A program made the translations under genes and the position numbers. This document shows, piece by piece, positions 3,969-10,503 of a stretch of DNA of 32,000 nt. The notes under the pieces were generated by a model that did no database searches, was not told the DNA's origin, and saw only the letters and a program-made list of their open reading frames with translations. Location of the stretch: NCBI RefSeq assembly GCF_000406145.1, contig NZ_CM001976.1, positions 4,641,577-4,673,576 of the forward strand, read 5' to 3'. Source of the stretch: Dickeya dadantii NCPPB 898. GTDB taxonomy: Bacteria > Pseudomonadota > Gammaproteobacteria > Enterobacterales > Enterobacteriaceae. Positions within the stretch are counted from its first letter, which is position 1, and each line of letters opens with the position of its first letter.

Positions 3969-4676
3969 TTATACCGCCTGACGTAATTGTCCGTTTTCGC
4001 CATCAGCCACCACCTGCCCGTCAGAAAGCACAATGGTGCGCTGAGCGCGCATGGCGGAACGCGGATCATGGGTAACGATGCAGATGGTCGCGCCGTCCTG
4101 ATGCAGTTCATCCAGAATATTCATCACCGCTTCGGCGTTGGCGGAATCCAGATTTCCGGTCGGTTCGTCCGCCAGCAGCAACGACGGCTTGCCGACAATC
4201 GCCCGCGCCACCGCCACCCGCTGTTGTTGACCGCCGGAAAGCTGTGACGGGTAGTGGCGCACCCGATGCGACATGTTGACTTTTTCCAGCGCCTGAATGA
4301 CCCGCGCTTTCTGCTCCGAGCGCGACAGGTCATTGCGGTAAGTGAGCGGCAACGCCACGTTTTCCGCGATAGTCAGGTCGCTTATCAGATTAAATGACTG
4401 AAAGATAAAGCCAATTTCCCGGTTGCGCAGGCGGGCCATCTCCCGGCGGCCGATACGTTCTACATCCGCGCCGTTCAGCCGGTAGCGCCCTTCCGTTGGC
4501 GTGTCCAGTAGGCCCATGATGGACAGCAGCGTCGATTTCCCACAACCGGACGGTCCCGCGATAGAGACGTATTCTCCCGAGTGAATAGAAAGGTTTATCT
4601 TGCTAAGGGCATGCGTTTCAATTTCATCGGTAAGAAAGATTTTATGCACATTATCAAGTTGAACCAGCACCGTCAT
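3969..4676 (-). CDS. vfmF: ABC transporter ATP-binding protein (MacB/LolD-like)
   Basis: The 235-aa ORF has Walker A GPSGCGKST, signature LSGGQQQRVAVARA, Walker B LLLADEPTGNLD and H-loop VTHD. SD GAGGA lies upstream of the ATG (ctGAGGAtttcccATG on the minus strand). Confidence 0.9.
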   Translation of the reverse strand: MTVLVQLDNVHKIFLTDEIETHALSKINLSIHSGEYVSIAGPSGCGKSTLLSIMGLLDTPTEGRYRLNGADVERIGRREMARLRNREIGFIFQSFNLISDLTIAENVALPLTYRNDLSRSEQKARVIQALEKVNMSHRVRHYPSQLSGGQQQRVAVARAIVGKPSLLLADEPTGNLDSANAEAVMNILDELHQDGATICIVTHDPRSAMRAQRTIVLSDGQVVADGENGQLRQAV

Positions 4677-5074
4677 GGGAAATCCTCAGTGTATAAATAG
4701 AGTCAGCCTTCCTGAGGCCGAGGGTATCTTACAGGCTGCAGACCACGCACTTTTATCTCTGGTTTTAAAAATGTGCCCAAAATACCTCCACCCGTCCATG
4801 ACGACGCCCCTTTCCTTGCGCTGACTGGCCCTTCCGCTGACAGGCTCTCCAGGTCGTTTCCTGTTCATCTGCGTCAGACAGCACGCACACGGTCTTCACG
4901 AACATCGGTTTCGCGTCTTCTGATCACAGCACAAATCATACCAATTACGTCCTGATCGCAGCCGACGACCCGCTCGCCGGGCAGAAGCAGCCTCCGGCAG
5001 CCGATGCGCACGTCAGCACGGTGCGCCGGCTCGTGGCAGGGTAGCGTATCCGGCTCGTCATTTGCGAGACGAAA

Positions 5075-5112
5075 AATCCCATGTTTGGCACGACACGATC
5101 CCATTAATGGGA
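5075..5112 (+). promoter_or_regulatory. Candidate vfm box / enhancer: AATCCCATGTTT, then ATCCCATT 22 bp downstream, inside the perfect palindrome TCCCATTAATGGGA
   Basis: Read directly: 5075-5086 AATCCCATGTTT, 5098-5105 ATCCCATT, 5099-5112 TCCCATTAATGGGA (a 14-bp perfect palindrome). It lies about 60-90 bp upstream of the sigma54 -24 element. The same 12-mer and spacing recur upstream of vfmA. Confidence 0.4.
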
Positions 5113-5164
5113 CGAGTTACAGGTAGGTGTAAGTATTTCCCTTTAAAAACAACCCCTCACAACA

Positions 5165-5180
5165 TGGCACACAATTTGCG
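5165..5180 (+). promoter_or_regulatory. sigma54 (RpoN) -24/-12 promoter for vfmE
   Basis: TGGCAC(5165-5170)-acaat-TTGCG(5176-5180) matches TGGCAC-N5-TTGC exactly with canonical GG..GC spacing. It sits about 120 nt upstream of the vfmE ATG. A sigma54 activator (vfmH) is encoded in the divergent operon. Confidence 0.7.
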
Positions 5181-5298
5181 TTAGACAGATCGCACATCGG
5201 ACCAAAGGACAATAATTAACCTCAGACTTCGCCGCTGTAAGGATTTTTGGATTTAGCTGGACCAGACACGGGGAATCTATTTTTTTTGGGATGACACC

Positions 5299-5862
5299 AT
5301 GAGCTTGCAGAACACCTACGCCCATACGTTGGATAATGATATTTTCAACAACAATCTGATTCAGGATATGTACCGCCGTCACCCTAATCTGCGCAAAACG
5401 CTTGCAGCAAATAATAAAGCGACCAGCCTGGCGGGAATTATTGACTATATCATCGACAACATCGGTAACAATATTACGCTGGAAGATCTTGAAGACGTCA
5501 GCGGTAAATCAAAGTTTGATATTTGCCGTCTTTTCAATCAGGTCTATAACATTACGCCGATGCGCTGGATTTGGCGCGTACGCCTGACGCTGGCAAAAGA
5601 GATCATTCAGATTTCGCCCAACTGGTCGCTCACCGATATTTGCTACGCCTGTGGCTTTTCCTCGCTACCGCATTTTTCCCGTTGTTTTACCAAGACCTAC
5701 AACATTCCGCCGCTGAAGTACCGCAAAGCAGTCTCGCAGGAACGGGAAAACGAACCGCCCCGCACCATGCAAAACATGAGCTTCGATATTATTTTCGGCA
5801 AACAGCGTCATCTGTTCTCACGTCACGTGCTGCTGGATAATATCCAGAACCTCTGTAATTAA
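5299..5862 (+). CDS. vfmE: small AraC/XylS-family transcriptional regulator (187 aa, no ligand domain)
   Basis: The ORF carries an AraC dual HTH: ...ITLEDLEDVSGKSKFDICRLFNQVYNITPMRWIWRVRLTLAKEII...SLTDICYACGFSSLPHFSRCFTKTYNIPPLKYRK. Only about 55 aa precede it. GC is low (about 40%). The symbol comes from remembered vfm locus order. Confidence 0.85.
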   Translation: MSLQNTYAHTLDNDIFNNNLIQDMYRRHPNLRKTLAANNKATSLAGIIDYIIDNIGNNITLEDLEDVSGKSKFDICRLFNQVYNITPMRWIWRVRLTLAKEIIQISPNWSLTDICYACGFSSLPHFSRCFTKTYNIPPLKYRKAVSQERENEPPRTMQNMSFDIIFGKQRHLFSRHVLLDNIQNLCN

Positions 5863-10240: not shown

Positions 10241-10290
10241 ACGCTCATGACGCTCATGACGCTCATGACGCTCATGACGCTCATGACGCT
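10241..10290. repeat. 9-bp tandem repeat (ACGCTCATG) x5.5
   Basis: Read directly from lines 10241-10290. On the minus strand it reads (ATGAGCGTC)n, encoding MSV repeats in frame with vfmA. Each unit contains the palindrome TCATGA. Confidence 0.95.
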
Positions 10291-10431
10291 AATAGTGAAG
10301 CTATGTCGCAGCAACACCGTTCATGACCCATGATCGAACGCAGTCAATCTACAGACACTTTGCCAAAAAACGAGTTTTGTTTTTATCCGCAGTTGCCGCC
10401 GCCTTGTTTTCAGAACGCTTTTATCTCAAAA

Positions 10432-10503
10432 ATGGGATTAATGCGCTAAAACATGGGATTGTGTCGACAAAACAGCAAAAAAATCGGTTTGATAATGGGA
10501 CGA
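10432..10503 (-). promoter_or_regulatory. Candidate vfm box upstream of vfmA: phased ATGGGA(T/C) motifs at 10432, 10453 and 10495
   Basis: The minus strand reads AATCCCATGTTT (10461-10450) and AATCCCATT (10440-10432), 21 bp apart. TAATGGGACGA (10493-10503) is identical to 5105-5115 and lies a further 42 bp away. Confidence 0.4.

Follow-up and report, generated by a model that had tools for sequence, protein, structure and literature searches.

A sigma-54 promoter element in front of vfmE as the probable link between VfmH and vfmE in Dickeya dadantii

How does Dickeya's Vfm quorum-sensing system turn on vfmE, the master switch of pectinase production and virulence in this genus? In the field's model the response regulator VfmH activates vfmE by a mechanism that is left unspecified, and a 2023 study left the use of sigma-54 open over a GAFTDA sequence in VfmH (Banerjee et al., 2023; PMC10714721). 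We analyzed a 32,000-nt stretch of the Dickeya dadantii NCPPB 898 genome (contig NZ_CM001976.1, positions 4,641,577 to 4,673,576; hereafter “the window,” numbered from its first base), for which a preliminary description had reported a sigma-54 (RpoN) promoter motif upstream of vfmE. Judging from the sequence together with published data, this motif, at positions 5165–5180, is very probably a functional RpoN promoter of vfmE that is driven by VfmH, and RpoN is probably the missing link between the two. That a bacterial enhancer-binding protein (bEBP) such as VfmH should use sigma-54 is a specialist expectation; the accessible literature does not connect RpoN with vfmE, save for the open question in PMC10714721, and is doubtful of the link, although an earlier mention is possible.

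The −24/−12 element and the transcription start of vfmE

The element of interest, distinguished by its sequence, uniqueness, and conservation, reads TGGCAC-ACAAT-TTGCG on the + strand (5165–5180; T5165 G5166 G5167 C5168 A5169 C5170, spacer ACAAT at 5171–5175, then T5176 T5177 G5178 C5179 G5180). The portion TGGCACACAATTTGC (5165–5179) agrees with all 10 specified bases of the consensus TGGCAC-N5-TTGC, and the GG (5166–5167) and GC (5178–5179) dinucleotides are 10 nt apart, which is the canonical spacing. The end of the element lies 119–120 nt upstream of the vfmE ATG (5299), and our reading of the sequence thus bears out the motif, the strand, the coordinates of GG and GC, and the distance of about 120 nt to the start codon as they had been described.

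TGGCAC-N5-TTGC has one exact match in the window (both strands, 64 kb). In dinucleotide-preserving shuffles the mean number of exact matches was 0.12, with at least one match in 11 of 100 shuffles, and matches with one mismatch occurred at chance level in the window (three found vs. 4.08 expected), the other two of these falling inside open reading frames (ORFs). Further sigma-54-like matches in the window (28842+, 17730−, 8925−, and others) were set aside, being intragenic and at chance frequency. Because the match count is weak by itself, the case for the element rests on its intergenic position facing vfmE, on the mapped transcription start site (TSS), and on conservation across genera.

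In the differential RNA sequencing (dRNA-seq) data of Forquet et al. (2022), the primary vfmE TSS of D. dadantii 3937 is placed at 4735214 and the start codon at 4735321, i.e., at ATG−107, and this TSS is graded “strong,” meaning that it was detected by both TEX-treated libraries and RNA-seq. The window differs from strain 3937, with offsets about 20 nt apart on the two sides of vfmE, and we therefore aligned the intergenic region with that of six strains whose VfmE is identical in order to transfer the TSS. The sole large difference among the six was a 19-nt indel (11 + 8 nt) at approximately 5017–5030, upstream of the activator sites described below. From the activator sites to the ATG there were few single-base differences, all of them between these sites and the −24 element, and leader length varied only by a T-run (7 or 8 T). 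Given such near-identical leaders, ATG−107 corresponds to window position 5191 or 5192 on the + strand, 12–13 nt downstream of C5179. This distance from the −12 GC, for a TSS taken from a close relative, fits the sigma-54 expectation of about 11–13 nt, and the transferred position agrees with the start near 5191 that had been predicted from the motif.

A consensus scan of positions 4600–5400 returned no sigma-70-like −35/−10 pair (0 vs. 1.0 expected). Relative to a start at 5191–5192, the −10 region would be GCGTTAGAC and the −35 region CCCTCACAAC, neither of which resembles a sigma-70 element.

Conservation of the element and of vfm-like clusters

We aligned the vfmE intergenic region of the window with those of D. 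undicola, D. oryzae, and three species of Lonsdalea. Columns of this Dickeya/Lonsdalea alignment were on average 64% identical, and the 16-nt block ATGGCACACAATTTGC was invariant while its flanks diverged, making it the longest invariant run outside the region of the ribosome-binding site and ATG. A scan of genome contigs with VfmE gave only two Dickeya species and Lonsdalea; the set of loci was then enlarged by way of VfmE protein homologues and the contigs encoding them, yielding 15 loci from six genera or groups (several species of Dickeya, three Lonsdalea, Pectobacteriaceae CE70, Rahnella, Sodalis ligni, and two Pseudomonas).

TGGCA[CT]-N5-TTGC precedes the vfmE orthologue at all 15 loci, on the coding strand and 85–145 nt upstream of the annotated ATG, with a consensus score of 9–10 of 11 positions in each. 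The −24/−12 sequence is the same in Dickeya and Lonsdalea, becomes TGGCACACTATTTGC in Pectobacteriaceae CE70 and TGGCATAGCAATTGC in Rahnella, Sodalis, and P. soli, and is TGGCATAGCATTTGC in Pseudomonas MUP55. Only the spacer, position 6 of the −24 element, and the position directly after TTGC show substitutions across the 15 loci, and known sigma-54 promoters tolerate variation at just these places. The DNA around the motif is unalignable between distant genera, and VfmE itself shares 84–85% identity with its Lonsdalea counterparts and 47–51% with those of Rahnella, Sodalis ligni, and several Pseudomonas species.

Vfm is presented as Dickeya-specific in the accessible literature. Outside Dickeya we found vfm-like clusters in Lonsdalea (L003–L007), Rahnella (L082–L084), Sodalis ligni (L089), and Pseudomonas (L079–L081 and L090). 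Their gene order agrees with that of vfm: genes for a bEBP, a MacB permease, and an ABC ATPase, the divergent AraC gene, and then genes for a hydrolase, a MATE protein, an ACP, and a KAS-III; in Rahnella, Sodalis, and Pseudomonas a periplasmic adaptor gene stands between the ABC ATPase gene and the AraC gene. A vfmH-like bEBP gene adjoins vfmE in every cluster examined except that of CE70. CE70 and a relative (L087 and L088) carry a vfmF–vfmE pair, with the upstream dyad discussed below intact (TCCCAGCAATGGGA) and with TGGCACACTATTTGCG, without adjacent vfmG or vfmH and without the vfmD–A genes; the neighbors include a phosphopantetheinyl transferase gene and gas-vesicle genes, and the locus may be what is left of a cluster or the product of its rearrangement.

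A second sigma-54-like element, TGGCA[CT]-N5-nTGCT, is present on the − strand in Pseudomonas (L081 at 5627 and L090 at 5619), Rahnella (L084 at 5623), and Sodalis (L089 at 5567), where it lies upstream of, and faces, the periplasmic adaptor gene at the head of the divergent transporter/bEBP operon. Its predicted start lies about 25 nt from the adaptor start codon in Rahnella and Pseudomonas MUP55. This arrangement suggests bidirectional sigma-54 control and autoregulation in these clusters. In Dickeya the adaptor gene is absent and a degenerate homologue of the second element, TGGTATGATTTGTGCT (window 4928–4943, − strand), lies about 250 nt upstream of vfmF, a position that does not fit the mapped vfmF TSS of strain 3937.

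VfmH, its candidate sites, and rival explanations

The gene for the candidate activator, vfmH, occupies 1348 to 1 of the − strand, downstream of vfmF and vfmG within the gene set divergent from vfmE, and was recognized from its translation and Pfam matches as encoding an NtrC-family response regulator and bEBP. It is truncated by the edge of the window, which holds the first 449 of about 466 amino acids; the last ~17 residues, with the C-terminal helix-turn-helix (HTH), lie beyond. The Pfam matches are Response_reg (3.8e-24), Sigma54_activat (1.4e-66), and AAA_lid_14, and full-length orthologues also carry HTH_8, giving the receiver, AAA+, and Fis-type HTH architecture of an NtrC-family bEBP. 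The Pfam scan of window ORFs, every large ORF included, detected no sigma-54 activator domain besides that of VfmH, in keeping with the preliminary description of VfmH as the only sigma-54 enhancer-binding protein of the window. Against the NCBIfam LuxO model VfmH scored 285.6 bits, below the cut-off of 800, and is therefore not a LuxO equivalog; its best NCBIfam matches (PEP-CTERM regulator, AtoC, and NtrC) also fell below their own cut-offs.

The sigma-54 contact loop of VfmH is GAFTDA (residues 231–236) in place of GAFTGA, and GAFTDA occupies the same position in all six orthologues examined, including those of D. chrysanthemi, Rahnella, Sodalis, and both Pseudomonas. GAFTDA is among the natural GAFTGA variants expected to stay active, and is found in DVU2106, a controller of sigma-54 operons (Kazakov et al., 2015; PMC4641369). 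Its invariance across genera, always in the company of a consensus −24/−12 promoter, suggests that the contact still works and has not been lost, and we infer that the VfmH loop would make a productive contact with sigma-54. VfmH has been reported to hydrolyze ATP and to be needed for vfmE promoter activity (PMC10714721). It also binds and activates the vfmE and vfmA promoters in vitro at the level of promoter fragments, according to a review (PMC7912708) of the work of Nasser et al. (2013).

Two candidate VfmH sites lie upstream of the −24 element. The proximal one, ATCCCATTAATGGGACGA (5098–5115), contains the perfect 14-bp palindrome TCCCATTAATGGGA (5099–5112) and is centered about 86 bp upstream of the vfmE TSS; the distal one, ATCCCATGTTTGGCACGA (5076–5093), is an imperfect dyad centered about 108 bp upstream. 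Together they form a direct repeat (family D1) with 78% identity and a start-to-start distance of 22 bp, or two helical turns, and their positions at about −86 and −108 fall within the 80–150 bp range typical of bEBP activator sites. Every orthologous locus has a dyad of the form TCCCAnnnATGGGA 66–127 bp upstream of the −24 element. In Dickeya, Lonsdalea, and CE70 its distance from TGG is 66 bp, and in Rahnella, Sodalis, and Pseudomonas it begins 85–127 bp upstream. The distal site is kept in the Dickeya species. Matches to the dyad with at most two mismatches number three in the 32 kb, all in the vfmE and vfmA upstream regions, the latter with paired ATCCCAT sites at 10424–10459 on the − strand (ATCCCATGTTTTAG, 21 nt from start to start, ATCCCATTTTTGAGA). 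Because the copies in the window are confined to the two VfmH-bound promoters, we propose the dyads at 5076–5093 and 5098–5115 as the putative VfmH operator.

An A-tract with AAACAA after it (5140–5159), located between the activator sites and the −24 element, may serve as a bending site for integration host factor (IHF); the evidence is weak. Nearly all loci have an AAACAA-type motif 20–30 nt upstream of the −24 element, and a scan with the IHF core WATCAANNNNTTR gave one mismatch in Rahnella, Sodalis, and P. soli and two in Dickeya, including the window. These features are suggestive of an IHF site at this position, and sigma-54 promoters typically depend on IHF. Mutation of ihf in D. zeae MS2 lowers vfmE expression by log2 −2.6 to −5.0 (6- to 32-fold), and IhfA shifts the vfmE promoter fragment (PMC9452768). 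The same study predicted another IHF site, in the vfmE leader.

Several points weigh against a VfmH-driven RpoN promoter at vfmE. The TSS comes from the closely related strain 3937 and not from the genome of the window, and its “pred” flag signifies that a promoter of some kind was predicted at this position by the tool of Forquet et al. An rpoN-dependence experiment on vfmE was not found in the accessible literature. A VfmH pull-down did not recover RpoN, and its authors considered that the G-to-D change in GAFTGA might abolish the sigma-54 contact, leaving the question open (PMC10714721). VfmH is further reported to activate the vfmA promoter and, with CRP, pelD (PMC10714721; PMC7912708), and the vfmA promoter carries vfmE-type dyads but only TGGCAA-N5-CTGT. 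Since vfmA is without a canonical −12 element and VfmH is reported to act with CRP at pelD, VfmH may also act at non-sigma-54 promoters.

An explanation that draws on several of these points would have a sigma-70-family holoenzyme transcribe vfmE, with VfmH as a conventional upstream activator in the manner of FleQ, VpsR, or Rhodobacter NtrC. GAFTDA would then no longer engage sigma-54, and TGGCAC..TTGC would be kept for some other reason, e.g., as the operator of another factor. The occurrence of GAFTDA in all VfmH orthologues examined, the missing RpoN in the pull-down, and the reported action of VfmH at vfmA and pelD, both without canonical −24/−12 elements, are all compatible with this explanation. 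We nevertheless regard it as improbable: no −35/−10 pair is suitably spaced from the mapped TSS, which lies 12–13 nt after the GC, and the pattern across genera retains TGGCA, TTGC, and a fixed 5-nt spacing, precisely what sigma-54 recognizes, while the sequence of the spacer varies. GAFTDA enhancer-binding proteins are linked with sigma-54 operons elsewhere (PMC4641369), and a loop variant that does not change between genera and never occurs apart from a consensus sigma-54 promoter is more in line with retained than with lost function.

Sequence alone cannot pair a bEBP with a promoter, and the element could also be a real sigma-54 promoter fired by another bEBP encoded elsewhere, such as NtrC, the effect of VfmH being indirect or auxiliary. 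The retention in CE70 of both promoter and dyad at vfmE without an adjacent vfmH would be in accord with this. The reported binding of VfmH to the vfmE promoter fragment and its requirement for promoter activity speak against it, as does the synteny that links a vfmH-like gene to the promoter across Dickeya, Rahnella, Sodalis, and Pseudomonas, and we consider this version very unlikely. The NtrC consensus is TGCACC-N5-GGTGCA, and the dyad, which is common to the VfmH-bound vfmA promoter, is unlike an NtrC-type site. A chance match, or a non-productive sigma-54 site of the kind that is numerous in E. coli and Salmonella chromatin immunoprecipitation data, would have no role in vfmE transcription. 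The exact matches in 11 of 100 window shuffles and the chance rate of one-mismatch sites might be taken to allow for one; invariance in 15 loci from six genera or groups effectively refutes it, and with the intergenic location, correct orientation, coincidence with the TSS, and paired upstream dyads it is scarcely credible. The reading that we prefer remains a VfmH-driven RpoN promoter.

Other conserved features were noted in the two upstream regions. A block, CATTTGCGAGACGAAAA (5059–5075), directly upstream of the distal activator site is near-invariant in Dickeya and Lonsdalea and has a similar counterpart, CATTTTCGAGACAC, in Pseudomonas MUP55. The vfmE 5′ leader (5192–5298, + strand, ~107 nt) holds the conserved block GGACAATAATTAAC (5207–5220), which overlaps the place at which an IHF site had been predicted for D. 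zeae MS2. At vfmA, a canonical sigma-54 promoter was considered and rejected: the only candidate is TGGCAA-AGTGT-CTGT, D. chrysanthemi does not retain its −12 element, and the TSS of strain 3937 (4740350) falls near 10349 or near 10328 according to how the strain indels are placed, neither of which fits the sigma-54 register. The vfmA upstream region (10351–10500, − strand) has a further conserved box between the paired sites and the −12 region, GGCAA(C/T)TGCGGATAAAAACAAAA in Dickeya and AAGCAAT..AGGCAAAAA in Rahnella and Pseudomonas, which may be a VfmE box. The longest vfmA ORF carries at its 5′ end five copies of a 9-nt tandem repeat, AGCGTCATG (10243–10290, − strand). D. chrysanthemi lacks this repeat, which is probably one source of the length differences among strains and makes the GTG start of vfmA at 10317 doubtful.

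The Vfm cascade, its known analogues, and its meaning

In the mechanism that we infer, vfmE would depend on RpoN. RNA polymerase carrying sigma-54 would sit on the −24 GG and −12 GC as a closed complex that does not open the DNA by itself. The Vfm signal would lead to phosphorylation of VfmH, which would bind the dyads at 5076–5093 and 5098–5115 on the same face of the helix, oligomerize through its AAA+ domain, and contact the polymerase by DNA looping, probably with the aid of IHF. ATP hydrolysis by VfmH would then open the promoter, and transcription from 5191–5192 would run through a 107-nt leader into vfmE. VfmE, a small MarA-like AraC protein, would in turn switch on sigma-70 promoters of the vfm operons and of the genes for plant cell-wall-degrading enzymes. 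Since Nasser et al. (2013) the published model has been a cascade that leads from VfmI/VfmH to vfmE and on to the vfm genes and those for cell-wall-degrading enzymes. The order VfmH, vfmE, output given in the preliminary description agrees with the published VfmH requirement and promoter binding (PMC10714721; PMC7912708) and is not new; what is added to the known cascade is only the sigma-54 step.

The gene vfmE (5299–5862, + strand) encodes a 187-amino-acid AraC-family regulator (Pfam HTH_18 and HTH_AraC) that is 97% identical to a protein named VfmE by NCBI. Its two-HTH core (about residues 37–146) has RamA, MarA, and SoxS as its best solved-structure matches in the PDB, aligning with MarA 6–114 and RamA 22–124, and is extended by about 36 unassigned residues at the N-terminal and about 41 at the C-terminal side of the MarA-like portion. 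VfmE falls far below the NCBIfam cut-offs for RamA (51.7 vs. 180 bits), SoxS (39.6 vs. 174), and MarA (36.6 vs. 202), and the Pfam scan of VfmE gave no domain other than the HTH pair. It had been suggested that some 55 amino acids precede the HTH pair, with no room for a ligand domain; the core itself starts earlier, at about residue 37–45. The comparison with MarA and SoxS is sound as to fold and size, and fails in its assumption that VfmE has no ligand: VfmE is an effector of cyclic di-GMP (c-di-GMP) through an RWIWR motif, and binding through R93 blocks Pel activation (PMC9045272). This motif can be read in the window VfmE (ITPMRWIWRVRL), and since VfmE binds c-di-GMP, its output is not fixed by its amount alone, contrary to the earlier proposal. 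Activation of every vfm operon by VfmE has also been reported and makes for positive feedback (PMC7912708).

The window as a whole is collinear with the vfm–ind–pecS–argG–xyl region of Dickeya dadantii, and its gene order is that of Table S1A of Forquet et al. (2022). On the − strand vfmF, encoding an ABC ATPase, lies at 3969–4676, separated from vfmE by a 622-nt intergenic region, and vfmG, for a MacB/FtsX permease, ends at 1529; vfmD, vfmC, vfmB, vfmZ, vfmA, and indC follow vfmE, again on the − strand. Forquet et al. describe a long antisense transcript, indC–vfmAZBCDFG, that crosses vfmE on the opposite strand. Because this transcript reads through vfmE, the vfmE promoter would fire into converging transcription (vfmE at 5299–5862, the opposing genes from 5925 onward), and interference is possible.

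Three known systems resemble the proposed circuit, and none is identical to it. The closest analogue in the same organism is HrpX/HrpY–HrpS–sigma-54–hrpL of Dickeya, Erwinia, and Pectobacterium, in which a two-component signal likewise passes through a bEBP to the sigma-54 promoter of one master-regulator gene, whose product goes on to activate the regulon, with IHF-dependent expression as for vfmE. VfmE differs from HrpL in being an AraC-type activator and not an extracytoplasmic function (ECF) sigma factor. HrpS has no receiver domain, whereas VfmH unites bEBP and response regulator (receiver plus AAA+), and the input to vfm, unlike that to Hrp, is a quorum-sensing signal. Closest in logic is NtrC–sigma-54–nac of Klebsiella and E. 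coli, where a sigma-54 signal is passed on to sigma-70 promoters by a small adaptor regulator. Phosphorylated NtrC drives the sigma-54 promoter of nac, and Nac couples to sigma-70 promoters mainly through its abundance; Nac is a LysR-type protein without a known co-effector, whereas VfmE is of the AraC type, binds c-di-GMP, and exerts positive feedback on the vfm operons.

Closest in biology is LuxO–sigma-54–qrr of Vibrio, a quorum-sensing phosphorelay that ends in an NtrC-family bEBP, and VfmH matches the LuxO model over residues 10–407. The target of VfmH, unlike that of LuxO, is a protein regulator gene and not a set of small RNA genes. Phosphorylated LuxO is active at low cell density, whereas VfmH in the published model is active with the signal present. 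MarA, SoxS, and RamA share with VfmE a synthesis that is induced by an upstream sensor-regulator. The soxS and marRAB promoters are of the sigma-70 class, and VfmE differs from all three proteins in its 187 amino acids with extensions, its c-di-GMP binding via RWIWR, and its predicted sigma-54 promoter. HrpS–hrpL is the only RpoN/EBP pair given for D. dadantii in a 2021 review of sigma-54 among plant pathogens (PMC8657755).

If the vfmE promoter is indeed an RpoN promoter driven by VfmH, RpoN and probably IHF would be required for Vfm quorum sensing, an rpoN mutant should be Vfm-blind, and the all-or-none, activator-dependent switching of vfmE would be explained. The likely VfmH operator, with the palindrome at 5099–5112 as its core, would become usable for mutagenesis and biosensor design, and VfmH would offer a natural test case for the GAFTDA loop variant. 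No new kind of mechanism is revealed; the same circuit exists outside Dickeya.

We also lean, with distinctly less assurance than for vfmE itself, toward a broader reading of the comparative data. Vfm-type quorum sensing may reach beyond Dickeya and form a family whose syntenic clusters occur across Pectobacteriaceae, Rahnella, Sodalis, and Pseudomonas and are wired to RpoN by a dedicated subfamily of bEBPs with an invariant GAFTDA loop acting on TCCCAnnnATGGGA dyads, with a sigma-54 promoter before the AraC master regulator and, in the non-Dickeya clusters, a second, divergent one before the cluster's own transporter/regulator operon. Were this so, GAFTDA would be a fully competent sigma-54 contact loop, and RpoN, and with it sigma-factor competition and IHF, would belong to the obligatory parts, as yet unrecognized, of this quorum-sensing family and of Dickeya virulence.

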